The notes below the pieces were generated by a model. That model was given only the letters and a program-made list of their open reading frames with translations. It had not been told where the DNA came from and ran no database searches. The translations under genes were made by a program, and so were the position numbers. From the NCBI GenBank assembly GCA_036172245.1, contig JAYWIR010000002.1, forward strand, positions 1 through 64,000: a stretch of DNA of 64,000 nt. The letters are read 5' to 3'. Of this stretch, positions 15,762-43,100 are shown piece after piece; position 1 is the stretch's first letter; each line of letters starts with the position of its first letter. Source of the stretch: Raillietiella orientalis (taxonomy: Eukaryota).

Positions 15762-17911
15762 GTGGGGCAGGAGCGGGGAGACTCCAAGGGTTTCGCGGCG
15801 GCGATGCGTGAGGCTGCCTTCAGCAGCCCTTCCCCTCTGCGCGGGAGGAAGAGGTCGGGTGAGGAAGGCCGAAGGTTCCTCCCGCTCTTCCTTTCCTTCC
15901 CCTCTCGCGCATCCCCAGCGCGCTCCTTTAGACCAGCTCCCCCCTCTCCAGGGAGATGGGAACGGCGAAACACGAGGGAGGAGTCCGCTCTGGAGCCAAG
16001 AGTTGCGTCGTGTCGCGGTCCGCTCCGGAAAAAACTGGGAACGAGGAGAGAGAGCCATCGGGGCGGTCTGGAAGGACCCCTTTGTTCCCCTCCCCCTCTT
16101 AACTGCTGGAAGCGCGAGACTTCCCTGCAAGAAGGCTCTCCCTGAGAGGGGTAGAGGATACGAGCGAGGGGGAGCGGAAGGGAGGCCATCCCACCTCTTC
16201 CGTCGAGTGGGGATCGAATTACCTGGCAACGATAGAACTGTCGATCAGGCAGAAAAAGGGGAGGGAGGGGCTAGGTATCCCAGAACCACCGGACACGAGG
16301 AGGGGAGGAAGACCATCCTTCGGGAACCAACGCGGCGAGCGCGAGGGTTGGAGGAGGAGAGTCGACAGGACCACCGCGATCCATGACTCTCCGCGGAATC
16401 CCCAAGAACGCCGGGGACGCCTCACTCCTTGGAACTTCTTTACTCACCCCCGAGCTGGGAAGGGCTGGTCCCTGCGAACTTGGGAGCCTCCCGCCTCCTA
16501 CGCCCATCCCTCTGCGGAAGGGGGCTATGTACGCAGCTTCGAGACGGGGTCAGGGATGGACAGTCCCTCCCTCTTGCTCCCTTTAGAATGGCCCTTTCCT
16601 CGCTCCCCCTACGAGAGATGTTACTCGTTCCCGTACGCCCGAATCGGGGAGTGCTCTCAGGGAAGACAGGGAGTCCACCGGGTGAAGGAAGTTAGTCGAG
16701 GTCTCCTGCGGGACCCTGTGGAAACCCTGTCCGCAGCGCTTCCCGATCTCTCACGGAGGCACGAAAAGAATCGGCTACCGATTCAAACAATCCCAGGTTC
16801 GCCTCCCGGTTCCCGAAGGAGCTTGCCGCTTCCCGATAAGGAGTCCAAATCCGGGATGAGAGGGAGCAGAGCGGTTTCGGGAACTTGATGGACCATTCAC
16901 GACACCCCTTCCCCTCGCTGTCCCCACCCTCACGCAAGCAGGCGCAGCCCATCCTCCAGTAAAGGCAAATCACGAGGGTGAGCGGTCCTCGACAAACCCG
17001 TCGCTCCGCCTGCTTCGTGAAGAAGAGGGGAAGGAGAGGAGGGAGACAACCCAGCATCTCGCGGTCTGCTGCTAGGCTGCGGAGCCCTGCCGGGAGGGCA
17101 CTTCCTTTCAGAGAAGCCCCCTAGAACCCCATCCAGGAGGATCCTCTGCCTCACCCTGTTCCTTCCCCTTATCTCGTGCCTTCTCCAGAGAGCTCTGGGG
17201 AGTACTGAGCGTTCCGGGTGCTCGGAGGATCTTCCAGACGGAGCGCCGACCCAGCAGTCTCCTCCTCTTCCCTGCTGCCGTCCCCCGTTCGCCACGAGGA
17301 AGAACCGCAGATCTGCCTATGAGAGATATTCGCTCAGCATCCTGAGGAGTGGGTTTCTTCGCGCCAGGTGCCGAGTCCGTAAGGGAAAAAGCTCTCCCGG
17401 GAATCCGGTCAGAGAAGGAGCGCGGAAGCGGCGCAAGCACCCTCGAAACGGCCCTCTTTCGGGGATACGAGAACGATTACCAGGGGTGGGAGGGTATCGC
17501 CGCGGTTTGCAAACACCTTATTAGCCCCCATTTTTTTCACCACACATCCTATTCAGTCTTCCTCCCTCTCTGAGAGGGAAGAGAGAGAGATGGAAGGTCA
17601 CCCACCTCCCTCCGCTTGAGTAAGTCTCTGCCTCAGCGGTGGGAGCCGGGGAGGAAGGAGCCCGAAGCGCATTTTCCCTCCCAAGCGACGACGGCTCGGG
17701 AACAGACGCTCCTCTCCTTCTCTTCCTGAGGCCCCTCGAGGGGGTGAAACCGGGGACGTCCTCGGTCGTCGGAAGAGACAGGACGAGAGGTCTCCCCCTT
17801 CCCCTCCGCAGTCCGTGGAGGTCCAGCAAGGTCGGAGTGACGCTCCCCTCTTCCCTCGCGCAGGACCCGGGCGGGTGATCCGGACTCTCAATGACGCACC
17901 GTTTCTACCAG

Positions 17912-18100
17912 AGTCCCTGAACATCCTGTACGAGGAGAGGTGGAAGGCCCTGGTCAGGACCCGTCTGAAGACGTTCGAGACCGGCGTCCTGCAGGCGGCA
18001 AAGAACGACGGGTACGACGGGAAAGAGCCCGAGGACACCGAGCGCCAGTGGGCCTTCAGCGGCTCCCTGCTGTACTCGGTGACCATCATCACGACCATAG
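17912..18100 (+). CDS. K2P potassium channel, exon 2 (cap and pore helix 1)
   Basis: Acceptor TTTCTACCAG; encodes ESLNILYEERW...QWAFSGSLLYSVTIITTIG; donor G|GTGAGC. Phases match exons 1 and 3. Confidence 0.92.
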
Positions 18101-21100
18101 GTGAGCCCTGGGGACACGTCTCAGACGGGACGAGCGAAGTTCACCGGGTAGCGAGTAGGGGGGGCTGGCTACCTCTCCGTCCGTCGTGGTCACGTGTGGG
18201 AGCCTCCCTGTCCCTACCCACGGCACCTCTACGCCCGCAAGACCCCGACCCTTCATCCCTCTTCCTTGCCATCCTTCTCCCCTCTCTTCCGGAAGGGGAG
18301 AGCGAGGGTCCGGAACACGAGTTTCCGGACCCATCTCGCCCTGACGGGCAGCTGGGCTTGCTCTGCCTCCCCCCCGACCGGGAACGAGCAAGCCTAGCCC
18401 TGGCTCGCCCGACTCCACTGCTCCGAACCGATTCCCCCCCCCCCCCCCCCTCTCTGCCGTCTATGGGATGACGGCCGGACGCCTGTCCTTCCCTAGATTC
18501 TGCATTGCGAGCATCCCCCGTCCCGACCCCTTTCTCTGGGAAAGCGGCGTGGAGCACCCCGCGGCGACTGTTGCCCGTGAACGGGAAGAAGGAACAGGAA
18601 AGGACGCTCGATGAGCCTCCGCTCCTTTTTGATCGTGCTACGATCTGCTTCCAATTACTCCGAAGGGAGGATGCTGGAGACGGATAAGAGGTGATGGATC
18701 GGCGGGGGATGCGCTGAAGTGGGGGGATCGGCTTGACAGGAAGAGGAGAGGGGGGGGGGAACTTTTTCTCCTCTTCCTCCCTCCCTTCACTCTTTCGTCC
18801 TCAACCGATCGCTGCAGCTCCCCCATGGTCCGGGAGAAACGGTGCGCGCTCGTCGGCCCTCCCACGCGGCCCCGCGCAAGCAGCAGCAACGGAAGCGCGG
18901 GTGCAGGACTAGCAAACCTTGCCGGAATTCTCTTCCCTCCCTCTTCCTCGATTTCCTCCGCACTCTTCCTGTGTCTTCTGGCCAGGACGACATGCTTGTT
19001 ATCCTTTCTTCCCTGGGAGAGGGATACCCTGAGATCTGGAGCACACTCCCTGATTGCGATCCGACACGCCCCACCCCTGTCTCGGTCTCCCACACCTACG
19101 CCGTTGCTGCAGCGACTGTCAGCGCCGCGCGAGCCATTCCGAGGGGCGGTCATTCTCTGGGAAGGGGGGAGAGAGGAAGTTCGGAATCTCTTAGCTGTGA
19201 GGACAGAGATCAGGGCCCTTCCTCCCACGGGAGTCAGTGAGAAAACAAGTCCCGTGAACGCCAGCCGACCGACCGACCCCTTGCCGTGTCCCTCTTCCTC
19301 CCCCGCAGGCGCTCCCCCTTCGATGATTCCCGTTCCATTCCAAAGCGGACCCGGGCACCTCCGTCTCGCAAGGGAGCGGAAAAACGGAGGCAGTGTAGCT
19401 GTTCCTGGGGAGGAGGGAGCAGCCCATCTCCAGGGAGGGCGCGATGGACAGGAAGCCCAACCCGTGCAGGCGGGATCCGGGTGGGTGGATCGCCCTCCGG
19501 ACCCAGAACCAGGGGAAGCGGCGACGGCCCCCGCCCTTGGCCAGCTCCTGAGCCTCACGAACGATCGCCAAGGCATGTCGCCAAGCGGCGCGCCACCAGC
19601 GTGGGCGCTCCAGCAGAGAATGCGCGCGGACCGCGAAGGAACTGCCTCTCTCCCTGCCCTTCCTTTTGCGCCGGAAGGGGCGAGGGTGGATGAGGGAGTG
19701 GGGCGAGCAGCTCGGAAGAACCGACGCCGACGCCGAGGGACGTCAGCGGGGGGAGCATCTACTGCTCGAACAGAGGGAAGGACCCCAAACCCATCCTGAA
19801 GACCGGAAGGTGGGGTGGCGGATGGTGGCGGAGTAGGCGATGAGGATGACCAGGTGTCTGGAAGACCCCCGTCTCTCAGGATGGGCGGGAGACCAGAAGT
19901 CCTCCGCCCTTCTTCCTCGCCTCACGGTCCTGATGGCGTTGCGGAGAGCTACCTTTCCTAGAGAGCCTCCGGCTTACAGGAAGGACGGCAGCAGTGCCGC
20001 AGAGAGAGAGGAGTGAAGTCCGGAGATGGTAGGATGCTGCCCTCGTGTCCAACCTGCATCCGCGGGACGTGGAATCCCCCTGCCCGTTCGGTCTCCGCCT
20101 CCAGGAAAAGCATTGCCGGGAGCAGCGACACCTGGCTCGCTCGACTCGCCGGAGGGGACGCCCACAGTTCAAGTGAGACGGGGGAAGGCGATGACGCGCC
20201 CTCCCGCCCGGGGGAGTGTCGCGGATGCGCAGTTCGAAGGAACGCGGCGCCTGCGAGTGGGGGCCGGCTGCGGCGTGTGGGTTGCCTCACTTTACGCGCC
20301 ATCTGGTGACGTGGGGCGCGTCCTTCGTCCTCCCTGCCTCCCTCTCCCTTTTTCCTTTCTCTCTCTCTCTCACTCTCCACGACGGACCGGACCGTCGCCC
20401 GCGATCCGGACGAATTGCAACGCGGAGCCCCGCTGATACGAAACGCAGGACCAGCAGTGCAAGGGGGACACATGTGCTTTTCTTTCGGCACCAGGATCTG
20501 CTCCCGCTACTCGGGAGCGCCCTTTGTTCCTTTTGCGCTCCCCTGAGAATGAAGTGGGGAAGCAGCAGCATGGTTCTCTTTCACTCCGCTCGCCGTCTGT
20601 CCAGCCGGGAAAGAACCGGTAGTGCGCCGGGGGTTCAGAGGGAAATTCAGGGCTCGGAAGAACGTGCTAGAAAGGGGTAGTGAACCACTCGCCTTCTTCT
20701 ACCAAGACCGATTTGTGAAGGGGACGGAAGAGGACCCCTGGTCGCCTCCTATCCAGAGTGCATCTGGAGTCCCGGAGGCACGAATTCTGGTGCCTCACAT
20801 CCGGCATCCAATGAAAGGACACAGCAGACTTTAATCTCTTCGCCTCCTGGACTAATACGTTCTCTCCCGTAGGTTCGCTTTCCTGCGTTCGCTTTCGTAC
20901 TTCCGTTTGCCTTTCGCAGTTAGCGCTCCCGTTCCCTACCGCGTGGCCACCTCGTGATCTCGCCGGGAATTTTTGGCATTGAGGCGGATCATCCGTCGTC
21001 CACGACCTCACTCGACGCCTCGGGAAGCTGAGTCCGCCGCTGCAGCATCTCCTCCAAAATCACAGCCCTCTTGGGGATGGATTCTTCGAATTCTCCTCTG

Positions 21101-24100
21101 ACGCATCTGTGCCTACGACCAACGACGCGGTGAACGACGATCCTTCTGCAGGGCGGCGGTAACGGTTGCAAGTCCCTGCTGATACATCTACCCTTCCTCC
21201 TGCGTTCCTGTGGAAGATCCGTCTCTCCTTCCTCGTCCCTCAATGACCTTCTTGCCCCCCCTTCCCCCTTTCCACGGGCATATCCCCGCACCGCTCGACC
21301 TGCCGTAGCGACGGCGCTCCCCGTACTGTCGTGCGTTTCCACGAGGCAATCCGCACGATCGGAAGCAAAGTGGCGGCAAGGAGACTGGACTCAGGGTACT
21401 CGAGCCAACCTCGAAGAGGGTAGGGAGATGAAGGATCATCAGTTCTGCAGGCATGGGATGAATTTCTCCCCTCCCCCTTTTTTGTTTTTTTTATTATTTT
21501 GCTGGTTGCGGTTGCCGTTTGCATATTTTTGCTTCCTCGGAAACTCCTGGCTCTTGGTTTCCATGAACGCACGGAGATGCTGGGCGTCGCCGCCGCCCGG
21601 AACGCCAGCTGCACGAAGAAAAATTGACGAAAACAAGACGGCCCCATTGAGAAGTTCCCCACCCACCCCAGGCAAAGGCAGCCGGAGCGAAGTTTCTTCC
21701 TGAGAAGAGAATCCTCTGTACCCTTCCGGGAATCTACGAGCCGCGCCTCGTTGTTGAGGACCACCGGACGGAAAACGGTCCGGACGGACAAGAAAATCGG
21801 ATTTCGGCGGGAGCGAGGGGGAAGTCTCCGTTTCGCGGATGGGTGCAGTGGACGACGACCTGGGCGCGAGGCGTCTCCGGGAGAATGCAGAGCTTGAGGT
21901 GGTAGCGCCCGGTGACCGCCGCCGCTCCCGGAAAACGCACTTCCCGAGATGACGGGAAGCTTGCTCGAGAGCAGTGAACGGAGGAGCCAGAATTCCTGCC
22001 TTCCAGGATCAGCGCACGCGCCGAAAGACTCCGCCTTAAGGCGAGATCTCCGGCCGTTCCGTCCCGTTCCTCTTGGCTAAAGGCAGCGCCCCAGAACGGG
22101 GGAAAAGCGAACCTCGCTCTGAGGAGGAGGCGGTCTGCACCAGAGTACCCCAATTCTATCCCCTCCTTCCCACCCATCGGACGCACCGCAGCACGTGACA
22201 CGGGACTGGTCGCTCGAGCAGGAAGCAGGGTGGATGCTGTGATCGTGTGCTCCCGTCCTGCGCTGTCCATTCCTTCACGGGAGGAGGAGAAGCAGGGTAC
22301 ATCGCGCGGACGCCCCTGAGGGGTACGCACAACCTAAGGTCAAGTCGGGTTCCTCCCTCCGTCGGAGAGTCCCGTCCCCGGCGGCCTCACCCGTCCATGA
22401 GTCTTCCCTCACGAAAGGGGCGAGTCGGCCAGAGACGGTGAGAGAACTCCGTGGCACGCAGGGCATCCGCTGACCACCCTCCTCGCAGAGTCCCACGCGT
22501 CACTTAGTAAGATGCTGGGATCTGGCGCGTTCGCCACCAGTGCATTTCCTCCCGGTTCACGGCCTCTCCGTGGCGGAAGAACCGAAGAGGTCTTTCTGAC
22601 GCCGCATTTTGCTTAGGGAAGCCGCAGGTCACCCCCCAGTGAAGCGCCCTCCCGTGTATGAAGAAGTGGGAGGGGGAGGGCAAAAGTCTTCAAGAATTCT
22701 GGTCAGGAGCTTCAGACTCGCACCTTTCGCTTTTCTTGTATGCTGGAGGACGACTCCCTCCCGTGTAACCAGGGACGAAAAATGTGGTGCTTCGCAGGGA
22801 CCTTCGTGGAGACGGAAAGCGATGGTCGCACTTGCATCCCGGTTGCCAGGAAGCTCGGAGAAGGGCGTTTCATCCGTTTCCTGTTCTTTCCTTCGCGAGT
22901 GACTCCGAGAGTGCCGCGCTGCTTTCGAATGCGCTGACTGATCTCGGTAGCAATCTCCAAAACCGTCCCAAAACATCCTTGGACCCGCTCTGGACTCCGA
23001 TCACTTTTCAGGGAGACCCGCGCGAATGAAACGGCAGAAGGTCCAATAGCCGAGCACCGCGATGTGTACGACCATTTTCCGCACACGACTCTCCGGTCAC
23101 CGATGACGTACCGAATCAAGAGGAGGATAGTGCTTTCTCCCATGAGAAGAGGACACCCTTTTCCTCAGAGCACGCTCTCAGACACTTCGCCCCCTTCCTC
23201 GGTCTGCAACTTCGCGAGATCGAAAACGAATGATGTGAAAGAAGAAGAAAAAATCACCATCGGCGCGCCTTTTCCGGAAGGCCATTCGCGAGCGAAGTAT
23301 CTCCGCGAGGAAGATTGTGCGGTGGGCAGTCGCATGCTGCGTGCTGAGGCCCCTCCAGCTACGCTGCCGACGAAGCCACGGCGGTTCCTCACTGAGCTCA
23401 GCCACGGAAGGAACTCGGCTCCAGAGCTCTTCCTGCGCCACAGCGAGTTTGGCGCAATTTATTCTTGCAGCTTAGGTATTTCTCTTCGATAAACCAATGA
23501 CGAGTAATAAAAAAGAGCTGGAATGGGCAGGAGGGGAGAGTGGCATCAAAGGAAACGAGAGCCCTCGATGGAGATGGAAAGAAGTTACTGGTGAATAAAT
23601 CTGTCAGAGATGAGATCGTGAAAGCACTCTCTTTGGTAGAGAAATACACGGGATCGCCCGATAAGGAAGATCAGCGATTCCTCTTTGTTTTCTTTTTTTT
23701 TTTTGGCTTTCTCGTTCCTCTCCGAGAAACTGTCGCTGATGAGGAAGCCCGCTCAACGCGGATCGGAGACGATCTGTCTGTTTTGACTGCGGTCTTGCAT
23801 GCCCACCAGATATCGACTGACTCCGGCGTGAATCCGGCGGAACGCCATGTTGCGTCGATGGCGAGAAATCCGCGCTCGTGCGGAACGCGTCATTAAAATC
23901 CAAAAAAAAATAATGTGCAGAAAAGAGCTCTGGCACCACTGCCACTTGAAGCAGGGCGTTCGATCCCAATTTAGGGAAATTTCTTTGCAATCTTCAGCTG
24001 CTCGGTCCTGAAATGGGGTTGCTACGATGGGACCCTGGGGACTTCACGCAGCCAGTGAATTCTTTTGGGTTTTTTGCTTCTTCTTCTTCTTAAAAGGACC

Positions 24101-24189
24101 AGTAGCGACCAGGGAAGATCGTTATTATTGACCTAGGATGGAAGGAATCCCTCAGGGTTCTTTTGTTTTCGCTGCTTTCCTTCCACCTT

Positions 24190-24907
24190 TTTTTGTTCTT
24201 TTTTGGTTCGCCAAGTGCTGAAAAACCGTCCGCTTCCTCAGAGGGAGCTCACAAAGCTCTTGAGCGCTGTCCACGTCACCCGAGGGGGCATGTGACTCTT
24301 CAAGTTACAGGGGGTAAACCTGGAGTGGCCACCCTATGAATCCAAGAAGCTCCGGGCGAAGGAGTCCGTTCCTATTATGCTTGACAGAGAACCCTGAAGA
24401 GCACACTCTCCCTGGTTGTCTCCGAAGGGAACCCCTAAAAGAGCCTCTTCCTCATTCCTCATTCGCTTCTCACTTCTTCTCCGTCGGGAACCCGCAAGGG
24501 AACTGCTCCCTGTTGCTCCTCTGAAGAGAACCCCGAATTCCCAATTTCTCTGGGGGGCGCCTCCCCAAAAGGGGTAGCGCGCTTCTGACACTCTGGAGAG
24601 GCATCAACCAGCTCCATGGTACGCGATACAATGTGGCCCCATTTTCACAACCGGTTGGGAACTCCGAAGGGGACCGGCTCGTTTGTTTTGGGAGGATCCC
24701 AGATGGTCAACTTCCAATCCCGGTCAGCCAAGAGAGGCTTTCAGCTTCCACCAATCACTGAGGCATACAGGCCAACCAGAGTCATCTCGAGGGGGGGGCT
24801 CCAAACCCACGACGCGCGTCCCATTTCTCGGAGTGTCGATCCTTCCGCGGACGGGATTCGAAGCGCTTGGTGCTGCCGCGCGCGGTGGCCGCAGCCACAC
24901 GGCCGCC
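24190..24907 (-). mobile_element. tRNA-derived SINE, copy 2 (near full length, ~0.7 kb, A-rich tail), inside K2P intron 2
   Basis: Colinear with 60392-61100; both carry GACACTCTGGAGAG.CATCAACCAGCTCCATGGTACGCGAT. Degenerate B-box at 24853-24863 and a T-rich run on the + strand at the 3' end. Confidence 0.8.
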
Positions 24908-26180
24908 AGCCCGGGCAAACGCTGGTTTCTTTGTGTGCGCGTGCGAAAGGCCAGCATCGACCTCCCGAAAAGATCGTTCCTATCCATGATGAAAGTCTTG
25001 TGGGCTCTTCCATCTGATCCTTTCTCCTCCCAGCTTCTGTTTTTTCGGTTTTCCTTCTTTTTCGGCTCCCAAGAAGTACTCAGGAACAGTTCGACTCCCG
25101 GGGGCCTTGGAGCGGCTCGACGATGCTGCCACACGCGGGTTCACAATTCCCTTAAAGCAAGGTCACGCCACCCGGAGGTGCTGCAACTCAGCCAGGGAGA
25201 AACCTCAAAGGGACCACCCTAACTAATCCAGGAATGCTCCGAGGGTGCAATCTCTCCCTCTTGTCGTCTCCGAATGCTTTCGGTTCTTCGTGTGTCACTT
25301 CACGTGCGCATGCGTGTTTTCCGCTCGTGAAACCGTCATGGTCTCGCAACCAGGACCACTTTCGGAAAGGCTGAGGAAACGAGATAATCACACAGGGGGC
25401 ATCGGCCAGCGTGTCTACGAGCTGCCTATGCGCGTAGCGGACAGCGCACCACCCCGGCGCCTGCGCAGTTCGCAAGCTGCCGAACGAGACATTGTGCGCA
25501 CCGTGCAACCGCGGAGTTATTATTAAATGCCACTTCGTCGCATTTATTTATTTTTTTTCTGCCATAAAGTCGCACGAGTTTGTTTCACGTGGAAGTTTGA
25601 CACGCATCTGGAGTTACAGAAAGCATACTTTTGAGAATGCTTCTCTGAGAAACAAAGTTTCGGCTGAGGGAACTCTTCCTCCTTCGAAGAACGGACAGCA
25701 GTATCTGCTTTTCCCATTCCTAGTCATGATCAGTGACGCTTTGCTCTTCCCACTACGTGGCTCTGTCCGAATACTCAGCGGATAACATGTGTAACGTTAA
25801 TGAGCTGCGAAGATGAGGAACACATTGGAAAATGAAAGGATGGTATCATGGTATGATGCTCTTTGCTTGGTGAAAGCAAGCCGAAGAAATGCTCTCATCG
25901 TGGATCCATTAAGCGATTGCGATGCTGCGGCCCTGTCTTCCGTCATCATCAGCGCTGCTCCAGCTTCCGCAGCAGTTTCCGTGCTTCTGTGCAAATCATA
26001 CGGGGGTTGAAGAAATCTTAGCAAGGGAGACTCTTAAGAGGAGATTCGAAATACTCATGCAAGCTACTCCTTGCCTTCGGTCACTAGGCACTAGATAGTC
26101 TTGGATCTCGGCAGGTCATTTCCTGCTTGAAACTGGAAATCTACTGTTTGCCTTAAAACAGCATAAATACGCTTAACCCC

Positions 26181-26214
26181 CGTATAACGCGGGTATTCCG
26201 TTCCGCGTTATACG
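26181..26214. repeat. Perfect 12-bp inverted repeat, possibly the remnant end of a Tigger/pogo-like MITE
   Basis: CGTATAACGCGG-N10-CCGCGTTATACG is directly visible. The MITE interpretation rests on recalled resemblance only. Confidence 0.45.
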
Positions 26215-29200
26215 AATCCGTGTCACACCAACTCTGTGGGTTACACGCGGATAATAAGATAGCATTTATAAAAGATGAAAAATCTACCTTGAGCATTATG
26301 TTGGCAGAATGGTTACGTTAGAGCAGAAGAAACAGAAAAAATCAAGTGCTTATTGCTTGTTTGGCTCAAAATAAGAAAAAAGAAGAAACACTGAGGTTTT
26401 TTTTTGATATTTAATTGGTTGCAGCAATTCCTCCATCATCCCGGTTGCTGGAAAACTTTCGCCCTACTTTATTCGCGAAAATTTGAATGGAGCGTAATGT
26501 ACCCGGCTCGAGTCACGTGTTTCGTGTTCTTTTCCTTGTTTTTTTTTTTTTTTTTAAAAAAAAAGAAAAAAAAAGAACGCAGGTGACCTGGAACCGCACC
26601 ACAAAATTGAAATTCATGCGCGGCGCCGTCGCATGACTGGGGCTGACTCTCCGCGTTGTACGAGGACCGTCGCCATTTTTTTTTTTTTTCTTCGTCACGC
26701 TGCACGAACCCGCGTGGTGCGGGGGTCCACCTTACGCATTCCCACCCACCGACCCCTCCTCACCCGCCCCTCCCCGGAACGAGATGCTTCAAGAATCGTC
26801 AAACGACTGCGAGTAATGTTTCTCTTAGAAAGGAGCAACCAGGTCGGATCCCCACGAGGGTAGTCGTGGGTGTTCAAGAGTGTTCTTGGGTAGGGGACAC
26901 AGTGGGAACCGTTTTCGCTCGGACGGGATGCTCGCTTCGGGGGCCAGGGTCCTTGTACCGTGGGGAACCAGCACGGACGGAATCCTTCGCAATTTTCCGG
27001 GACGGTTGCCGATCCTCGCGTGTGTGGAGCTCGTCGAACCTTGAAATCATCTGCCCTTACTCCTTCGTGCGTTTCGAACAGCAGCCTTAGGGCTGCTGTT
27101 CGAAACGCACGAAGCTCACCAGCATGTGTCTTCTTACCAGATCTCTCGGTGGTCTTTTTTTCCAGTGCGAACTCATCGTTGCTTGGGTAGGCGCATCTTT
27201 TCTCCTCAGCCTCCCACACTCCCATGCAGGTCCTGAAAAGTTTTCCGGACACATTGATGCTGCTTACACAATGGAACGGTCTTCCTTGTGCCGCTGCCGA
27301 TGCATATCAGCCCGCAAACCGCTACCAATGGCAACGGCCCACTTTCAGGACCAGTCGCGATAAAGTGCCTGTGGTCGTTTGGTGGGAACACTCATGCAAA
27401 TATCTAATTGTAAAAATGCAAATGAGCAAAGCTTAAATTGATCCCTTTGTTAATGTTTTTTTTTTTTTTTTTTATTTTATGCAGGTAGTTTCTATCAACT
27501 CTTGATGTCCATTAACCCACAAAATGTTAATTGGACGTCATACAGGTACAAGAAAATTCATTGTGACCAGTATTAATTGTGTCTGTTGACTGTGATACAT
27601 AAAAACTGTGGATAAGTGGATGTGTTTGACTCCTTGAAGCATGTTTTCGAATCTCTGTTGCACTTCAGCTCCCTGGAGCTTTCCTCGGTTCCCTTCGTAT
27701 CTCCGTGCTCCGGTTGCGCCACGCATCCTTTGCCTGGAACGTCCACTCGCAAGCCTCCTCGCCTATCGGGCACAGGACCGGGACGTTAGGGTGTTTGTTT
27801 TTCCGCAGGAAACTCACCGCAGTCCGCGCTCGGAAAATTCGAGAAAAAAACGAAAGAGGCGTTCGCCGTAGGCTGCGAGTTTCGCTCGCAAAAAAAAAGA
27901 CAAAGGAAAATCAAAACCAAATGGAATCCAAGGATCTCTTCAGGCGTCCGATGGGGGATGCGTTGAACCGACCCCTTTTGATCGTCCGAAGCGAAGATCA
28001 CACACGTTCGTGGTGATCTTTGACGAGCACCTTCCCCTACGAGTGTTTGCGTATTTACGGACTTGCGCTCGTGTGCACTCGTGCACGGTCACACGTGTCG
28101 CTCGCGCGCGGCTGACTGGAAACAGATGAAAGCTGTCCGAGAAGCACGCCGGAGGCAAGGGAAACGGAAGCTTGGTTATTTTGTCGGAAAGTCCTGATCA
28201 TAACCGCGCGGACAAAGAGCATGTTCCGATAGAAAGCCACCCGTACCGCAGATTCACCCACGTGCTCTGCTAGAGGACGTTGGGCGAGCCCTTGAAATCA
28301 GCAGGTGGATCTCTTCCGGCTTTTGAGAAACGGAAGAATCGGTGAGGGATTTCGCGGGGAAAGCTCTGCGCTTCAGAGTGCTCATCGCCGTGGGGAGGTC
28401 GGACCTTCCAGCTGATCGCGCGATGATGCCCTCGTAGTGGTGCCAATCGAACTGGCTGACACCTAGACTGACCGACTTTTCTTTTTTTTCTTGTCACTCA
28501 ATCTTTATGTGCCACTGCTGTCGATCACACGGGATGAAGACCGGTTCAGGTTTCAGGTGCCGGGAGAGTCCGGCAGTTTCTCAGGATTAAGAAGACAGAA
28601 GTCGTCCCAAAACAGGATGGCAACACTCGTCTTCCCTGAGGGGGGAAAATCTTCCTCAGAGCAGGCGGACTGGTTCCTTAGCGAGTGTGTGAGGGTGCGC
28701 CGCTCGTGCACCTCAACTGCGATGAAGCACGTTACTGGAGATTTATCTCCACCAGACCTGGAAAATGCAAACTCTTGTGCAAACTCTCACCTACGATGAC
28801 AAGGGACTGCCTGTTCCCCCCTTCCCTCCCTCTTTTTCGTCAACACCCTCCGCCCCTTCGCATAAGGAAGCGGAAAGGATGCGATTTGACCTCTCGGGCC
28901 CAGCAATCTCAATAGAGTCCAACTTGCGAGTCAGGCGTTCCAGTCTTATGCGTGCTCCGTGGAACGAGAGAGCGGGGGAGATTTCAAGCGAGAAATTCGC
29001 AGCTGGAGTATGAGGATTCTGCGAACGCGAGGCTTACCCGCAAGGTTTCGGAGAAGACAGAGAACTCCTCTCTTCGAGAGAAACTCCATTCACCTGGAGG
29101 ACCTGCTTCCCGCTAAGTGGAGACTACAGTTCACTAAAGAGGGAGGCAAAGACAAGGAGGAACTCAGCACTCCAAGGACACCCACCCGGAAACTCCGCTA

Positions 29201-30149
29201 CCCGCCTACCAGATCAGGTCATGGAAGCGCGGATCCCTATACCTCCAGAAAGGCCACAGAAAAGGGGGAGTCGTGAACTGCGTGGTGGCATCCCAGCTCC
29301 GCAATGCTGGAAGAAATCCGCCCGCAGTCCACCATAAAAACACCGCAACTTCCTTTTCTGATGGATGCTCGCATCTCGAACAAGGACAAAAGATACATCT
29401 CCAATCCAGTCTGAGGACTATAGGAAATTTTTTCACAAGGACTGCAGAAACGAAACCCAAATGAGGTGTCTTCCTCTTCCCCCTTCCCCTTCCTTCCCCT
29501 CTCCCCCCATTTAACTCAGCTACGAGCATCTTGCGCTCTGCGGTATGAGCAAATATGGCGGCAGGATGCATAAGGGATGCGCCTACTACAAAACGAAGAT
29601 CGCATTCTTCCAGATGCCCATACGCCTCACTCAACATTTGAACATCCAGATTTTCTCCGAACCAGATCCAAGTTCGGACGCAGAAGGCGTCTTCGCCACA
29701 CTTCTTTGCAACAAGGAAGATGTCCGTTCCTTCAGCTGACATGGGCCTATTCTTTGTCAACGTGGACAGACTGGACTGTTACAATTTTGCTCCAGTCTGC
29801 TCATATTCCGCTCATTTCCCATATATCACTGGGCTTCAGCATAGAGCAGCATTCATCTGCTTACATTTCATCAGCATTGGGTATAACAGTGGCTAAGTAC
29901 TCTCCTGCTATTTGAGCACATTTGGAGGCGTGTAGCAAAGGCTACGTGTGCTGAATTGGACCTCTTGCCCAGCTCAAGCTCACGCTTCTGCAATGAAAGA
30001 ACTCACACTCCAATGGAGAGCTTATGTAAAATGGGCACGGGCTAGCAGCATTTATCGATCTGTAAGTTTTCAATCACCATGAAATGTTGAGGATACTAGC
30101 TTCTGCAGAAACACCAGCACTGCATCCTGTTCGGTCAGTTTGGATATGG

Positions 30150-35600: not shown

Positions 35601-37312
35601 CATATGAGCATCTTGCAAACAAAGATAAGATGGCATGAAAGCACTTTTGGCCATAAACTGTCTCGAGCAGTTAGGCTGTCTCAAGGATTCAACTTGCAAA
35701 CTACAATAGCCACTGAAACACTGTGGGTTTTTTTTCTTCTTCATTCCAAGTCAGGTACCAAAGGAAGCCATAAACATTATCAGCATTCCTTACCGAATGT
35801 TCTACTGACGCCTCCAAATTCCCCCTCGAAATTTCAAGTTTCTCAACCAACCAATTATGGACTGTGCACAGAGTAATTTGTTTAAAATGTATGCATGCAT
35901 GGTGTTACAAGACCAACGAATAATACAATTAACCATAGTGAAAGTGGTCATCGTTTCTTCGGGTATACTCAGTGAAAATAATCATTGTTTTAAAAAGAAA
36001 CAGAATTATATTAACGTGGACTGTCAGTGCTGTCATTCAAGAGCAACTCTGTGTTGTCTATGAAAAATAAGAGGAACTTTTCATTGGTACCTCAAATAGG
36101 TCGTTCAAGCATGCATTGTCTGAGCTACCAGAACCATGCTTTGTGGACCATCATAATATTTGATGTCGGTCATTCGTAGCTCCTGCTCTTCAAACTTACC
36201 AAAGATCGTTCCTGATGCTAATTGGATGTTAAATCATTTATCTAATTCGATCTCTGTCACGTTACCATTGTAAAAAAACAAACTATGATAACAAAACAGA
36301 GATCACGAGAACCGATTGCAATAGACTCGAATAGCTTCTTTGGCTCGAATTTCACGTCCAACACGTTCAGAATCGACATGGATGCCAATATTCCCTGCGA
36401 ATGAGTGAAAACGAGCTTTACCACTGCTGATTTTATATACGTATTACGGAATTAAGAATTCCATTCATGGAAAAGTTGTGCTATTATCCTTCTTTATTTA
36501 ACATCTGGTCACTTTGCTCCTTTTTTTTTTTTGTTATGCATTGATAAGTTGCTGTTTGTTTCTACGAGGGTATTGAAAAGAGATGAATCTAGGTTTTCCT
36601 CTATAGGAACTGTTGCATACATATGGAAAGAAGCATATTTTTGTGTCTGCGTGGTTTGTCTCGGTACTTAATCCTCCTTATGAGGGCAAAGTTGCATTAT
36701 TATTCTGACACGAAAAGTGGCAGTGGTACGGTAGAAGAAATAGAAAATAGCATTGCTGTGCAATTGAAAAGCATGCAGCCGTTGAATTTCTTGTTGGAAG
36801 TACGTCATCGGAGAATGAGCACCAGTCGACGAGTGACCATGGCAACATGGTACTGTTCACGGAGATGGACAAAGCGCAGCAGAAACTGTGTACGCACCAG
36901 ATAGCTGATTTGCTGAACAAAACGTATAGCAGGGGACCTTACATGGACTATTCAATAACACACACCGCTCTGCTTATTGAAAAACACTCTCCGTTCTTAC
37001 CACTTCAAGAAGCTGATGCTGTATGTTGCAGTGACTCTTGGGAGTACGGAAAATGTACACACGTTTTTCTCATGCTGACTGGTTTGAAAAGCAGATGAAT
37101 GAATTTTATTGCCATTAAGATGAGGGCGAGTGCTTCGGCTCGCACATCGTAACAGGAAACGAAATCGGACTGCTTTACAACGAACTTCAGAGTAGGGACG
37201 GTAAAATATCCCCAGAAGTGACATCATTGACAAAAGGTTTGGGCCGAATCATCTGCGTGAAAAGTCGCTCTTACGAATTGGAAGAATGCAAAGCGAATGC
37301 TACTTTGCTGTT

Positions 37313-37381
37313 GCTTCCTAGTAAATTAGTAATTTACTAGGAAGCGACCAGGAAGTAAATTACTTCTTAGTGACTTCCTGG
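37313..37381. repeat. Two adjacent palindromes at the left insertion junction
   Basis: GCTTCCTAGTAAATTA-G-TAATTTACTAGGAAGC (perfect 16-bp arms, 37313-37345) and CCAGGAAGT-N16-ACTTCCTGG (37348-37381). Confidence 0.9.
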
Positions 37382-37572
37382 ACGAAACCCACCAAGAGAA
37401 AACGGTCGTTTTGACAAAGATAAGACACAAAAGACGTACAATTTCATAGGAAAGTACATAAAAGCAAAAGGTCGAGAACCGCGCAAGGCAATTAATACAT
37501 TAACCAAATTTATTCGAGTTCAGGAGGAAAATAATGTAAAATCAGCAAGAATAAGACTGGTGAGGAATATGC

Positions 37573-37975
37573 TACTTCCTGCATAGGTAACCCGCATATT
37601 ATCCTAGCCAATTGCTCAAACTGACTAACGTTACATGCATCCAAGCTCCAGTGGCAGGAATTGTGAGGTCTTGGAGCTAGTTCGTTAACTAGCAGCTTAT
37701 TATTTCTAGTAATGAAAAATTCAATAGCAAGGATTCCTACTGCATCAAGCGCATCTGCTATTTTCTCTGCGGTTTGTTGAGCTAATTTACTATCTATTTT
37801 AGCTGGCACTGTTGAAGCATCAAGTATTCCATCAACGTGGTGATTTTCTGCTATGGGAAAAAAAGTCACTTCACCGTTTTTATCTCTTGCAATAACTGTT
37901 GAAGCCTCTTTGAGTAAATCAACACCTGCCTCGAGGATATACTTTGTGTTCCAGCAAAGGGAAACAAATTGTTTC
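37573..37975 (-). pseudogene. purK: Internal fragment of bacterial N5-CAIR synthetase (ATP-grasp domain)
   Basis: One open frame: WNTKYILEAGVDLLKEASTVIARDKNGEVTFFPIAENHHVDGIL...GILAIEFF...LLVNELAPRPHNSCHWSLDACNVSQFEQLARIICGLP. It contains the PurK signature NE.APRPHNS.H and SQFEQ, and both ends of the gene are missing. Confidence 0.92.
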
Positions 37976-38175
37976 TCTTCTTGACTTTTCCTCCATTCAG
38001 CGCTCCTATTACGCTCCTCACCCTTCTTCTTTTGAATCCTGGTTTATCTGCAAATAATCTTCTGCCTCCAGGAGCCCATCCGTATGCATAAAATTTATTG
38101 TCTTTTATGCCTGATTCGTCTATAAATATTAAATCTCCTTTTCTTATTTTCGCCACTTTTTTGTAAATTCCGTCT
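37976..38175 (-). pseudogene. IS630-family transposase fragment (first catalytic Asp region)
   Basis: LIFIDESGIKDNKFYAYGWAPGGRRL...SVIGAL matches the IS630 motifs (Y/F)IDE(S/A)G, YGWAPxG and SxIGAL. Confidence 0.85.
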
Positions 38176-38242
38176 GAAGCTATTATTTATCTTCAGTCTG
38201 AGCACACAAAACGATAAAAAATTCACTGTACTTGGCTCCTTA

Positions 38243-38405
38243 TGGTTAATTTTTTGCACTATGTGCACCCCATGTCATTAAACTTTCAAGGTTTCTACCT
38301 ACCTAATATAAACTAAAATGCGCTTGTTAAAGGGTTTAACACAGTAAAAAACGCCAATTTAAAAAATAGATAGTGAATAACTAGCTAACAGGGTTTCTTT
38401 TGCCT
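38243..38405 (+). repeat. Wolbachia-type AT-rich intergenic repeat unit, ending at the IS110 insertion site
   Basis: AAAAACGCCAATTTAAAAAATAGATAGTGAATAACTAGCTA...GGGTTTCTTTTGCCT resembles, from memory, a dispersed Wolbachia intergenic repeat. Not verified by search. Confidence 0.5.
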
Positions 38406-38407
38406 TG

Positions 38408-38413
38408 TATATT
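38408..38413 (+). promoter_or_regulatory. Candidate sigma70 -10 box of the IS110 circle-junction promoter
   Basis: TATATT begins 3 nt inside the left end and ends 8 nt before the first bridge-RNA stem. In IS621 the -10 lies in the left end and the -35 in the right end, which is absent here. Confidence 0.55.
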
Positions 38414-38419
38414 GTAAAA

Positions 38420-38589
38420 AGCATCTAATGTTTTAGGCTGTAGCATTAGGTGGAGAAGGGAAAAACTCTGGCTTTTGCCTTAGATATATAATCTGTAAAA
38501 AAGAAAAGAGTTCCCTTCTCAAAAGTAAAGGCTGGACGGTATCGTAGAAAGACCTAAATGGTTCTAATTCTATATTCAGCCTTACTTTT
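38420..38589 (+). ncRNA. IS110 bridge RNA (5' hairpin, target-binding loop, donor-binding loop lacking its right donor guide)
   Basis: Hairpin 38422-38452. Stem GAGAAGGG..AACTCT/AGAGTTCCCTTCTC encloses guides CTTTTGCCT (38472-38480) and AAAAAAG (38497-38503). Stem AAAAGTAAAGGCTG/CAGCCTTACTTTT encloses ACGGTATC (38536-38543). The first guide is identical to the flank at 38397-38405. Confidence 0.82.
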
Positions 38590-38597
38590 CATTTTTA

Positions 38598-38745
38598 ATG
38601 GTAGCGTATGGGATGATCAACAACTTTCTGGGCATAGATCTATCAAAAGATCGCTTTGATGTTTGTCTCTCATTCATAAGTAAAAAAGGTAAACGTGAAA
38701 CTAGGAAAAGGAGCTTTAAGAACGATGATAGTGGGTTTCAAGGCT
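38598..38745 (+). pseudogene. IS110 recombinase N-terminal fragment (RuvC-like DEDD domain, first Asp)
   Basis: MVAYGMINNFLGIDLSKDRFDVCLSFISKKGKRETRKRSFKNDDSGFQG matches the IS110 motifs GID.SK..(F/L)DV and F.N...G. Too short to appear in the ORF track. Confidence 0.88.
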
Positions 38746-38777
38746 CCTTTGATTATTACTGACTATTATGAGAAGAG

Positions 38778-38893
38778 CTATAAAATCATCTCTGACAGAT
38801 ACAGAAATAGACGAAAACATTTTGGTTTAAGATTTAATTTGATTGCTGCTGTTCACAATTCTGAGCTCCCTATATGAATTTTGAAACAAGTCC
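38778..38893 (+). pseudogene. IS5-superfamily (ISL2-like) transposase C-terminus with probable right terminal repeat
   Basis: YKIISDRYRNRRKHFGLRFNLIAAVHNSEL* matches KI..DRYRNRRKRFGLRFNLIA.IYN.EL. It is followed by TTTTGAAACAAGTC. Confidence 0.75.
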
Positions 38894-38894
38894 A

Positions 38895-39025
38895 TTAACA
38901 GAGTCTTTTGGCTGCCATTTGCTCTATCTTCCAACATATTCACCAGATTTGAATTCTGTAGAACACTGTTGGCATAGCATCAAAAGTCGCCTCAGACCTC
39001 TAATGCATCAACACACAGATTTACA
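38895..39025 (+). pseudogene. IS630-family transposase C-terminal fragment (catalytic Glu region)
   Basis: FGCHLLYLPTYSPDLNSVEHCWHSIK matches LP.YSPDLNPIE..W. It lies on the opposite strand to the other IS630 piece. Confidence 0.88.
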
Positions 39026-40181
39026 TGCTTCCTAGTAAAGATGCAGTAGGAGAAAATCTGCTATTATCATTAATTCCAAGCAAAGGTTCGGCAGTTTTTA
39101 ACCCCAAAGCAAGTGAACTCGCACAGTTCCACCTGAGGAGCAGCGTGGCAATGCAAGACCGCAGATAAGGCGAGTGCTTCTGCTCCTTACTTTCATGACA
39201 TCAAAGTATTCGCCCTTAAGGTGACTTGTCTCCCAAAATTTCTACCTGCTCACAGAATCTTACGGGATCTTCCCAAGAAACCCTTCTTATAAAATAGAGG
39301 CTGCCTCGGAATTGCTCTGGTCAGATTACGAAAGTGAGAAGAAATTTGGACGGTCATATAAATTGCTGATTCGGGGAGGTTGAATGTATCACCTGCCAGC
39401 ATACCCTCGAGTATGTCTCCAAGTATTTTCATTAGTTGGCCTATGCTTCTCACAGGCTGATTCAATGATTGTTTCACAAAGTTCTGTGTCCTTTGAAACC
39501 AAAAACTAACGATTATGGAAAGTTTGACTAGGAATGAAAAATAGAATTAGTTTTCGCGTAAAATTGAAACAAAAGCTTTAGATTCGGTTGACGTCATGAC
39601 GCTGATTCACCTCTCAACAGAGAACGATTTGCCTCTTCCGTTTCACGCTACGTCGAAGTAATGAATTCCCAGCTTCCTAATGATAAACCTTGCAATAAAC
39701 AAAAAATCCACTTGACCAAACTTCCACCCAGTTTGGAAGGCAATGCTTGCGTGTATTACACAATTATCATCAGGTAAAAGAAAAGAAAAAAAATCCACAT
39801 AAACACTGACAAAAGCTAAATTATTTTTAAACGAACGTTTTCCATCTTTTCTTTTGCAAATGCTGAGACTAAAATGTCAATGCTCTTCACAATGCATTTT
39901 GTAATAGAAATACTAGATTTAAGCATGATACTTGCAACTGATGAAAGCTAAATACTGTTGCTCAAAACGCATCGCAAATGTTGGTATGCCTGCATAAAAA
40001 GATTGTAACGCGGCAAATGTCTATCAGCAGTTGCTGGAAATTTCCTGCAGATATTTATTATTATTCCTTGCATTTCAATATACCCTTGAAAAAAATTCCT
40101 TTATAAGTAATATCAAATGATAGCAACTGAACATATAAAACAATAATCCTTTATTAACATGGGCATTAATATTTGCAATGC

Positions 40182-43100
40182 TTACTCTAGAGCAGAATCT
40201 TTAGGTTTTTTACTTACTTCATCCGATTTAGTCACAGGGATAGGACAATTAACATTTGCATCAGCAGATTTGGCATGAACTTTTGTTTTGGACTTTGACT
40301 GAAAGGTATTTTTTTTGTTCAATGCCTGCAATCCAGAAGGACCAGTTTTATCATAAGCAAGTGGGCGAGCTTTTGCTGAATTTTTTATTGAAACGGGGCA
40401 TGCTCGGTTTGTGCTACTGGTTGGCATATGCCTTTTCACAGGCTCCTGAGAATTAGAAACCGGACAACCAGAAATGTTACGCTTTAGTGGCGGATTTTGG
40501 TCATTGCTGGATAATTTTTTAGCACCGTGTAAAACGCTTGATGCAGATGCCCCACTATGTTTAGTGGCTGTAGAAACTACCTTTGCAGGCTGACTAGATG
40601 CAACTGGTTTTTTACCAGGTATTTTTAAATCTTTTGTTTGTTCCCGTTTACATGTTTGAGCTGTAGTTGAAGACCTTGCAGGAGACTGTTTACTCTTTCT
40701 GATTTTATTTTTTGCATCTGTAGATTCTTTGGACAGGGGTTCCACTTTTGGTTTTCTATGTGATACAGCCAATTGTTCCTTATTCTTATGAACTACTGTT
40801 TGTTGCTTCACATCCACATGATGTTTAGACTCTGAAGTACTTCCTTTATTTTTCAGTCTGTCAATACCAGGTTGCCTCTTCTGACAAGCTGCAGAAGCTT
40901 TTGCTTGACCTGACTGCCCTTTTGGAAGCACAGGTGAATGCCTTTTGTTTCCCTTAATTATTTCAGTTTCTTTGGCTGACACCTTCCCTAAAACTGCATC
41001 CTTTCGAAGATGCTGTATATCTTCTTCCACTAGTTGCAGCACATCATCCTCAAGCTTCTGATTATCCTTCTTCCCCACAGTATAGACTTCCTTTCTCACA
41101 CAAGGAGGCTCATCAGCTACTGGACCCTTAGGAGGATCTTTCATTTTGACAATAACATCTTCATGCACTTCCTTAGGGAGAGAGACAGTAGGTTCTTTGC
41201 TCCCAGAAGGATCATTTGAACCTGCATCCTTGGGCTCAGTATCAGAAAAATCTTTTTTATTACATACACCTTTTCCATGGCTGTCTTTTCCCTTTAACTC
41301 TTTAGAATCGTCATAATGTGGTTCCTTGCCATCATTTAGAGGAGTCTGATCTTGACTTTTATCTTCAGCTAATCTTCTTGGAAGTTCAGGATTAACCACA
41401 TTTGGAGTAGGATCCTGTTTATTTGATAGCTTGTCTTCTGAAGGTGACAACACATCTTGTTTTTCTTCTGTTGTATGTTTTCTCTTTTCATCCTTTCCAA
41501 ATGAATGCACATTGTCAGCTGCATTGCATTTTTCTTGGGATTCATCATCATCACTCTTTTTGTCCTTTTTCAAGACAAATTCTTGATTCAGAAAATCTTG
41601 GTTTAATGATTCTCTCAAAGAATTGATGTCTATGAACTGTTTACGATTGATGTTTTGTTCTTTTTCAGAAAAACACGACTGATTTTTTGGATTTTTGTCA
41701 TCTTTTCTAACAATATCATATGAATGAATTACCTCTGCCTGTTTTGATGCAAACGAGAAATCCAAAAACTTGTTCATTCCAGATTCTGTTTTGAGAGTTA
41801 CAGGAAGTTCAGGCTTGGGAATTACAGGGAGTTCAGGCTTGGGAGTTACAGAGAGTTCAGGCTTAGGAATTACAGGGAGTTCAGGCTTGGGGGTTATGGG
41901 GAATTGAAGCTTGGGAGTTACAGGGAGTTCAGGCTTGGGAGTTATGGGGAATTGAAGCTTGGGAGTTACAGGAAGTTCAGGCTTGGGAGTTACAGGGAGT
42001 TCAGGTTTGGGAGTTACAGGGAGTTCAGGCTTGGGAGTTACAGGGAGTTCAGGTTTGGGAGTTACAGGGAGTTCAGGTTTGGGAGTTACAGGGAGTTCAG
42101 GTGTGGGAGTTACAGGGAGTTCAGGCTGGGGGGTTACAGGGAGTTCAGGCTGGGGGGTTACAGGGAGTTCAGGCTGGAGAGTTACAGAGAGTTCAGGCTT
42201 GGGAGTTACAGGGACTTCAGGCTTGGGAGTTAAAGGAATTTCTTCCTTGGAAGTTCCAGGGAATTCTGGCTTCAAAATCGATGGGGGCTCCACTTGAGTG
42301 CTTCCAAGTTTGCCCAAATTTTGTGTTAGTGAATTATTGTTAACTAAATGGACATTGTCTTCATAAGGGGAATAAAAAGACGTAGTTTCTTCTAATGCAT
42401 GGGCATTATCCACTCCAGTCACAGAAGATTTAGTCAAAAGTGGTTCTGATTTTGGATTCACTGATGCAACTTCTTTCTTATCTTCTTGATTTGCAAAGTC
42501 TTGCACTCGTTTATCTAAACCAGAAAAATTTTCAGGTTGACCAATTTCTTCCTCTGGAAGTAACAGAATACTGCTTCCTTGCTTCATACTGCAATATTTC
42601 CAGTCATCATCAGAATCATCAACAGCTTCTTCCACTAATCCTTCAGGCATCTCATCTGATGCTACTAGAAGTCGTATACTTCCTAAAATGAATGTGATAT
42701 ACTTACAAGCAGATTTATTATCTGTACCTTCATTGTCATACGAGTCATCAGCTAAATTGTATTTACTGTCAAATGTACTGACATCACCATAATTACTTGG
42801 AAGATCCTTACTCATGGCTACCTTCTTGGATGCAAAAGGATCTATAAGAACTACTACTTTTGAAGTGTTTTTATTCTTGACTCGAATATTTTGAGGATGA
42901 TTAAGATATACAACTATCACAGTAATATTGTCTTGTGACCCCTTGCAAATGGCTGTTTTCACCAATTCTGCACTAGCACTGTACCACTGGTCTAGAAGAG
43001 AAAAAAAAAATTACAGCGCTCCCGATACAAATGAACCTTCCTTGTTGTGTCACACGTACACTCAACTTGATTACTGAATTTTAATTTTAAAACTTGCGCA

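Follow-up and report, generated by a model that had tools for sequence, protein, structure and literature searches.

In the genome of Raillietiella orientalis, a 1,700-bp insert is probably (we put it at roughly 0.7) a dead nuclear Wolbachia transfer whose patchwork of fragments was made in one repair event. The insert lies within the 64,000-nt stretch analysed here (contig JAYWIR010000002.1, positions 1 to 64,000; the window, to which all coordinates refer) and is enclosed by a 14-bp repeat, TGCTTCCTAGTAAA, with exact copies at 37312-37325 and 39026-39039, both on the plus strand. Of its 1,700 bases, 1,643 (97%) map to Wolbachia, which supports the donor genus named in a preliminary description of this DNA. 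The entry of Wolbachia into animal chromosomes is usually assumed and seldom read from junctions; this insert is functionless, yet the course of its repair stays fully legible in the duplication, the fold-back filler and the joints between fragments.

Composition of the insert

The insert is not one transferred block but consists of about eight truncated pieces, 45-410 bp long, and neighbouring fragments come from separate sites of the donor and differ in orientation. Four mapped pieces lie at about 21, 300, 819 and 1,139 kb of one complete genome (G001), in both orientations. The preliminary description did not mention this multi-piece structure.

The leftmost piece (37374..37573, plus strand) is a scrap from within a Wolbachia regulator gene of the two-HTH (XRE) type, matching L201 at 74%. 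Next to it (37570..37980, minus strand) is an internal part of an ATP-grasp gene (Pfam PF02222, E = 4.7e-37) which we take to be purK; it is truncated at both ends, carries a 9-nt deletion and is 92% identical in nucleotide sequence to Wolbachia of Tettigetta isshikii, and its top 20 matches are all Wolbachia or Rickettsiales bins. It is followed by a scrap of an IS630-like transposase (37984..38170, minus strand; DDE_3, E = 7.8e-5, below the curated cut-off), with nucleotide matches of 72-84% in five of 41 genomes of the genus, and by 233 internal bp of a multicopy Wolbachia repeat of about 320 bp (38174..38406), cut at both ends, which has a best match of 89% and occurs in dozens of copies per Wolbachia genome. 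Neither the insert nor the multicopy repeat gave an Rfam match that reached the gathering score. Next comes the 5' beginning of an IS110-like transposase together with the DNA upstream of it (38405..38741, plus strand), which matches at 83% what two phage WO records label 'mobile element protein'; the corresponding Pfam match, DEDD_Tnp_IS110 (E = 0.012), is below the cut-off. A short piece (38745..38791) is a putative multicopy Wolbachia sequence, with 30-38-nt matches at 91-97% in three genomes (G006, G014 and G036) and weak matches only in local BLAST. The piece after it (38772..38896, plus strand) is the 3' end of an element of the IS5 family and extends into the terminal repeat of that element; it is 86-91% identical to many Wolbachia copies and matches a plasmid sequence annotated as IS5 family transposase. 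The mosaic ends with a second DDE region of an IS630-like transposase (38884..39025, plus strand; DDE_3, E = 9.8e-11, above the cut-off), 85-89% identical to Wolbachia.

The regulator scrap and the purK piece overlap by 4-5 nt (TGCT), and the multicopy repeat and the IS110-like piece by 2 nt (TT); such short overlaps are uncertain because the genomes compared are those of relatives of the true donor strain (identities of 72-92%). The IS5 and second IS630-like pieces meet inside a common short motif, and this joint could predate the transfer because it sits at the IS5 end. The best donor ORF for the regulator scrap has two HTH_3 stretches and radC (RadC) as its neighbour, which suggests, in the light of the wmk context given in PMC12504857, that the scrap may derive from a wmk-like gene.

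Probable target-site duplication and templated filler

The repeat that the preliminary description had placed around the insert is real, and several comparisons set it apart from chance. The probability that chance would place two identical 14-mers no more than about 150 nt from the two ends of the insert is about 2e-4. At up to two mismatches the 14-mer has five matches against a chance mean of 0.42, and at least five were found in none of 100 shuffles; in a placement null of 142 random pairs no repeat scored above 12, as against 14 for this pair. The left copy is host sequence outside all Wolbachia matches. Since no empty allele or paralog was found (searches of assembly DNA and of proteins returned no paralog of either flank at DNA or protein level, and the one DNA match to the flanks is a 129-bp stretch at 73%, about 1.6 kb upstream of the site), we infer, rather than read from an empty site, that the pair is a target-site duplication, and the earlier statement that it defines the insertion site to the base would depend on that empty allele.

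At the right border, IS630-like similarity stops at 39025 in three donors and extends to 39030 in others. Two of six donors, and another copy of the element in this host, continue the IS630-like sequence with GCTT, bases 2-5 of the right repeat; this motif is possibly a 4-nt microhomology between the IS630-like piece and the repeat. Because of this spread and of the GCTT continuation, the earlier statement that the right copy begins where the similarity ends holds to within 0-5 nt (39025-39030).

The left repeat is not flush with Wolbachia DNA. Between them lie 48 nt (37326..37373) of locally templated filler, made of inverted and direct copies of nearby DNA. This filler holds an inverted copy of 13 of the 14 bases of the left repeat, as part of a perfect 16-bp fold-back (37313-37328 with 37330-37345); positions 37348-37356 repeat, in inverted orientation, the bases with which the leftmost Wolbachia piece begins (37373-37381), and 37354-37362 are a direct copy of 37320-37328. 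The preliminary description did not include the fold-back filler.

SD-MMEJ (polymerase theta) junctions are characterized by filler that is copied, in inverted or direct orientation, from neighbouring DNA, and the present junction appears to bear the signature of synthesis-dependent end joining. Its structure fits the snap-back and multi-round SD-MMEJ described in the available text of PMC2943611, and PMC5730883, as far as its text was available, reports that staggered breaks yield duplications, sometimes with templated inserts. Perfect hairpins of at least 11 bp occur at five of 36 insert ends in this genome, against one of 357 and six of 685 control windows (P = 3e-5 and 9e-5, Fisher's exact test), a comparison to be read with caution, as the threshold was chosen after hairpins had been seen by eye, one of the five is the present locus and the hairpin at L003 may be at an inner junction.

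Repair of a staggered break, as first proposed, is supported as the likely source of the duplication. We suggest that a germline break, its ends offset by about 14 nt, opened in a single-copy and probably decayed part of the host genome at a time when the nucleus contained fragmented supergroup-F-like Wolbachia DNA. Fold-back synthesis at the left end, in several rounds, would have built the 48-nt filler from the target end and the first fragment, by a route such as that of synthesis-dependent MMEJ (polymerase theta type). Filling in of both overhangs would have doubled the 14 bp. Neutral decay of about 3% has followed.

Donor, decay and infection history

In a tree of the 408-bp purK piece, the insert groups as sister with the strains of Mansonella ozzardi and Tettigetta (support 96/75 and 93/79, unstarred). 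These strains presumably belong to supergroup F, and this moderately supported grouping suggests a supergroup-F-like donor.

The purK piece has decayed by about 3% in a neutral manner: of 302 sites that do not otherwise vary, 10 show a change private to the insert, in addition to the deletion, and nine of the 10 fall at codon positions 1-2, against 36 of 74 changes in relatives (P = 0.017). No gene in the insert is intact and all pieces are truncated. Unpolarised differences show an AT-to-GC drift (334 versus 171); ADAR-type editing was considered for the A-to-G excess and rejected, the sense strand having 128 A-to-G and 106 T-to-C differences. At about 3% decay a 14-bp pair would still be perfect about 39% of the time, and the perfect repeat does not support the view that the event was fairly young.

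The insert documents a past infection of the lineage by a probably F-like Wolbachia. Present infection, which had also been considered, is not indicated: neither a second nor an intact copy of purK was found in the assembly, although symbiont contigs may have been filtered out.

Host setting and other inserts in the genome

In the 210-Mb assembly the insert is embedded in a contig of host nuclear DNA, and eukaryotic exons separated by introns (two-pore channel, SH2 and septin) lie around it, so that its description as a nuclear insertion is supported by surroundings of intron-bearing animal DNA. The target itself is single-copy host DNA that has probably decayed. Two candidate features in the flank were rejected: a Cys/His motif at about 37020-37065, which is reminiscent of the SWIM finger of a Mutator-type element, was blank in Pfam, phmmer (0 matches in 1.84 billion proteins) and Atlas, and a Rhabdo_NV match (E = 0.015, below the cut-off) was taken as chance.

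The genome probably contains several hundred such Wolbachia fragments. A capture-recapture estimate of about 470 places was discarded, as its sole recapture came from a stretch (L164) already known to hold that piece. At least two pieces are present at 16 of the 19 host loci with a match. Flanking repeats of 14-18 bp exceed the null at three of 18 loci (14, 18 and 17 bp), with L011 and L015 excluded from this count and from the hairpin count because the Wolbachia block reaches the end of the locus; a repeat at L006 (score 12) was rejected as low-complexity and within the null. Among the 10 assessable of 53 inner junctions at other loci, two have microhomology, two are blunt and six have 1-11 unassigned bases. 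With several hundred fragments estimated, the route of entry, namely end joining of DNA fragments at breaks that LINEs may or may not have cut, becomes statistically testable.

Alternative origins

The staggered cut could have been made by the endonuclease of a host non-LTR retrotransposon, whose reverse transcriptase may have started synthesis at each of the two target ends and switched from one bacterial template to another in the style of twin priming; we regard such LINE-assisted capture as unlikely. LINE target-site duplications measure about 7-20 bp, and the 14 bp found here, like the 18 and 17 bp elsewhere, fall within the size range of LINE-mediated (TPRT) insertion. The first and last coding pieces point apart in five loci, towards each other in one and in the same direction in seven; the 5:1 ratio of divergent to convergent loci would fit this reading but is not significant (one-sided P of about 0.11, calculated by hand), and gives a weak hint that orientation is non-random. 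Against this reading, the three duplications have no common cleavage motif, the insert has neither a poly(A) or simple-repeat tail nor LINE sequence, and simple twin priming would call for the opposite sense in its first piece. Matches to rRNA among the host pieces number four against 3-4 expected, and may be host rRNA; this lack of enrichment argues against RNA templates, and the donor was probably DNA. The earlier suggestion that a LINE endonuclease was the cutter is accordingly unproven, while a role confined to the endonuclease is possible. The fuller proposal, in which a host LINE endonuclease cuts and fragments are stitched from both target ends to give the 14-18-bp duplications and the divergent coding pieces, seems to us slightly less likely again; if it were true, hundreds of patchworks would form a natural junction library of a specific, repeatable route of DNA transfer from bacterium to animal.

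It is more doubtful still that IS elements, inserting into one another and decaying within the bacterium, built all or part of the mosaic before it moved as a block, or that it grew by repeated host insertion at one site. Mobile or repeated DNA accounts for five or six of the eight pieces, a larger share than random sampling would suggest, the IS5 piece stops at its own terminal repeat, and L011 and L015 hold larger contiguous donor blocks that contain the multicopy repeat. However, most pieces lack their element ends, the cut points are arbitrary, purK and the multicopy repeat both being internal pieces, and a single duplication encloses all the pieces. A search of five Wolbachia genomes with the whole insert gave no match spanning two pieces, and L014 and L019 join single-copy genes from far-apart donor sites. 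Nor does the insert have the borders of a bacterial IS transposition (IS630, IS5, IS110), being bounded by the regulator scrap with its filler and by an internal DDE scrap.

An assembly chimera or live-symbiont contamination is very improbable: although the insert stretch was found in one sequencing run (X1, public and of low depth; share 0.09; no RNA run listed) that is possibly not independent and whose contigs do not reach the outer junctions, gaps that carry no weight either way, these contigs bridge two inner junctions with 0 differences at a depth near that of the host flank contig (3 versus 5.7), the filler is copied from both host and donor ends, the decay and AT-to-GC drift are those described above, dozens of small inserts of similar kind lie deep within large contigs, and the assembly has no intact purK.

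Comparison with known systems

The preferred reading, a nuclear Wolbachia transfer (NUWT) assembled in one repair event, has parallels in the clade-F-like fossils of Dictyocaulus viviparus (PMC4046930) and in filarial NUWTs (bioRxiv 10.1101/2025.03.17.643741). Shared with these are fragmented Wolbachia DNA in host contigs, neutral decay, hundreds of inserts per genome (here an estimate), a donor that is here probably F-like, and value as a marker of past infection. The present insert differs in having about eight far-apart pieces, readable junctions, a target duplication and fold-back filler. The words mosaic, chimeric, junction and mechanism are absent from the main text of the filarial study, the supplements of which may hold junction data, and in our literature search, thin on subscription journals, no study of NUWTs that deals with target duplications or mosaic junctions came up.

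With the SD-MMEJ (polymerase theta) junctions of PMC2943611 and PMC5730883, in their available text, the locus shares snap-back inverted repeats, multi-round templated filler and duplication of overhang segments. Those junctions come from induced breaks in model organisms with genetic tests, whereas here the enzyme is suggested by sequence alone, and PMC5730883 assigns most such duplications to classical NHEJ.

There is also a structural likeness to complex NUMTs/NUPTs and mosaic organelle insertions (available parts of PMC12129026 and PMC6215612), in which several donor fragments are joined at once with microhomology, blunt joints and filler. In rice, organelle insertions have target-site duplications of more than 5 bp in 13% of cases, with microhomology and fillers, and complex ones arise from single events (PMC12129026, as far as available). 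The donor there is an organelle, whereas here it is a bacterial endosymbiont and the host an animal. The insert is therefore not a member of that class but works like one, and appears to be a nuclear Wolbachia transfer built in the manner of the complex organelle insertions of plants.

Composition and host setting of the insert

We found that Wolbachia accounts for 1,643 of the 1,700 bases between the two flanking repeats (with piece limits as set in this analysis), which bears out the Wolbachia-like origin claimed in the preliminary description. From left to right, the patchwork comprises a two-HTH regulator scrap of 200 bp, for which the best donor adjoins radC; a minus-strand purK-type piece of 410 bp; an IS630-like scrap; the middle section of a multicopy repeat ~320 bp long; the start of an IS110-like gene; a short multicopy piece, defined from the table of matches only; an IS5 element's 3' end; and another IS630-like scrap. 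The regulator scrap may be wmk-like, judging by the context described in the accessible part of PMC12504857. Four of the pieces lie hundreds of kilobases apart, in both orientations, in one complete Wolbachia chromosome, and among the matches listed for the whole insert against five Wolbachia genomes none spans two pieces. IS pieces make up a high share of the insert.

The 14-bp repeat has exactly two exact copies, both on the plus strand (37312-37325 and 39026-39039), and an inverted near-copy at 37333-37346; five matches appear when up to two mismatches are allowed, versus a mean of 0.42 by chance. In a placement null none of 142 random pairs had a best score above 12, and this repeat scores 14. 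The perfect repeat previously described on both sides is real. A search of the host assembly (210 Mb in 491 contigs, the window being the beginning of contig C2) for an empty site or a paralog of either flank found none. The insert is not set apart by GC content (36.5%, versus 39-40% in the flanks). Along the window (1-64000) GC falls from ~60% (1-23 kb) to ~31% (46-53 kb) and then rises again, a strong isochore-like structure in which AT-rich DNA is gene-dense. The window also contains intron-split exons that code for a two-pore ion channel, for an SH2 protein and for a septin. A single frame is open through the repeat on both sides (69 codons left, 43 right; chance ~3%, computed by hand), and because database searches returned no relatives of this frame we take it as no more than a hint of coding DNA that has since decayed. 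In the left flank (36593-37325) lie several short open frames, together with a Cys/His motif reminiscent of a SWIM finger, a reading for which no database support was found. A 942-codon open frame at 40182-43010 (minus strand), with a 24-nt tandem repeat (PKPELPVT-like), has no Pfam match; its start looks like the final part of a PP2C phosphatase domain.

Junctions and read evidence

TGCT is common to the regulator and purK pieces at their joint, TT to the multicopy repeat and IS110 pieces, and a short motif at the IS5 end to the IS5 and last IS630 pieces; overlaps of so few bases are uncertain because the true donor is missing, the donors compared being 72-92% identical. Three bases separate purK from the first IS630 piece. 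At the right end, the last base with donor similarity is 39025, and GCTT (bases 2-5 of the repeat) continues the donor sequence in two of six donors and in a second host copy of the element. Between the left repeat copy and the first Wolbachia piece lies a 48-nt filler. Within it are a perfect 16-bp fold-back made from the target end and two 9-mers, an inverted one copied from the start of the first piece and a direct one copied from the target end. This filler fits the snap-back and multi-round products of synthesis-dependent MMEJ in Drosophila, as they appear in the accessible part of PMC2943611.

One public sequencing run, X1, contains 9% of sampled words of the sequence. Among the contigs listed, two of 151 nt bridge the purK/IS630 and IS630/repeat joints at depth 3 with no differences, versus depth 5.7 for a host-flank contig; these are inner joints only, the outer junctions being uncovered, and it is possible that the assembly and the run are not independent. 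Another contig departs from the window at 38147 (255 unlike letters) and probably stems from a different copy of the IS630-like element.

Other inserts in the host genome

The insert has matches at 22 other host places, 19 of which were excised for study. The sample is not random, as the loci were recognised by IS and repeat pieces that they share with the insert; at least two Wolbachia pieces were present in 16 of 19 (matches at E 1e-4; the present insert counted, L007 without a match), with a median length of 141 bp over 72 pieces. Flanking repeats exceeded the null in three of the 18 loci with both ends visible: this insert (14/14), L002 (17/18; 1053-1070 and 2476-2493) and L010 (16/17; 1320-1336 and 1803-1819), the latter two being further patchworks whose repeats have one mismatch each. 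Inner junctions could be assessed in 10 of 53 cases, of which two showed microhomology, two were blunt and six had 1-11 unassigned bases. The first and last coding pieces were divergent in five loci, convergent in one and in the same direction in seven (a crude ORF-based count; not significant).

Perfect hairpins of at least 11 bp, a threshold fixed after some had been spotted by eye, were found at 5 of 36 insert ends; control windows gave 1 of 357 in one set and 6 of 685 in another. They include fold-backs in L008 (22 and 11 bp; 1122-1169 and 1584-1610), L003 (20 bp; 809-853) and L018 (11 bp; 407-435), and the three longest-tested cores of this set were absent from the Wolbachia loci compared. 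Four perfect hairpins in host DNA of the window, at 7079-7116 (17-bp arms), 26181-26214 (12), 27063-27114 (24) and 57052-57094 (19), have no Wolbachia match and could be scars of fold-back repair in which no DNA was captured.

Longer blocks also occur: 1.7 kb of contiguous Wolbachia sequence in L011 (1466-3209), and ~2 kb in L015 (77-3181), interrupted by an unmapped 757-bp stretch. On contig C56 (~13,400-29,700), at least five matches (73-93% identity) cluster over ~16 kb and may belong either to one far larger mosaic or to several separate inserts. The same 51-bp piece occurs twice on contig C3, 20 kb apart (3245010 and 3265084), probably through later host segmental duplication.

Genome-wide load and mechanism

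Three 20-kb Wolbachia stretches, chosen non-randomly (two for rRNA, one containing a known piece), gave 99 host matches: 48 multicopy, 4 rRNA and 47 single-copy DNA. The single-copy matches fall in 38 places on 25 contigs (38 matches in 32 places on 20 contigs at ≥75% identity). Weak matches may be orthologues belonging to the host, and only the best candidates were scored. Scaled to the Wolbachia chromosome, this gives roughly 780-970 fragments, or 0.11-0.17 Mb, in the host. Bacterial RNA is mostly rRNA, whereas the four rRNA matches (possibly host rRNA) compare with 3-4 expected; a DNA rather than an RNA donor is therefore favoured.

The best reading is a single event in which fragmented bacterial DNA would have been end-joined into a staggered break of the host DNA. 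In the accessible part of PMC5730883, staggered breaks yield overhang duplications, mostly via classical NHEJ, and polymerase theta at such breaks yields duplications sometimes with templated inserts. It is possible that LINE cutting made the break, as the duplication lengths fit; however, the duplications share no motif and there is no tail.

Donor and age

Identity of the purK piece to the Tettigetta strain is 92%, and a tree of 26 rows places the piece as sister to the strains of Mansonella ozzardi and Tettigetta (supports 96/75 and 93/79, neither starred). This placement suggests a donor in supergroup F, the supergroup labels of the strains being taken in part from the study of filarial nematodes (bioRxiv 10.1101/2025.03.17.643741). 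At 302 sites invariant across eight relatives the piece has 10 private changes, nine of them at codon positions 1-2, versus 36 of 74 in the relatives (leave-one-out, P = 0.017), and it also has a 9-nt deletion. Decay of the insert is ~3%, an upper estimate. The perfect duplication had been read as a sign of a fairly young event; this does not follow, because at such decay the probability that a 14-bp pair is still perfect is 0.39. Among host pieces with ≥85% identity, 334 differences are AT-to-GC and 171 are GC-to-AT (unpolarised).

Comparison with known systems

The locus is functionless and the class of insert already known; its value lies in how cleanly it records its junctions, in a genome where such events abound. 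A topic search found no paper on nuclear Wolbachia transfers (NUWTs) with target duplication or mosaic microhomology junctions. In the parts of the sources consulted, the NUWTs of Dictyocaulus (PMC4046930) and of filarial nematodes (bioRxiv 10.1101/2025.03.17.643741) are of the same kind as the present insert, and complex NUMTs and NUPTs have the same build. Rice organelle insertions, as far as the accessible text of PMC12129026 goes (cf. PMC6215612), show microhomology at 48% of junctions and TSDs >5 bp in 13%; they also have fillers, and their complex inserts arise in single events, the same mix of features as in the present insert.
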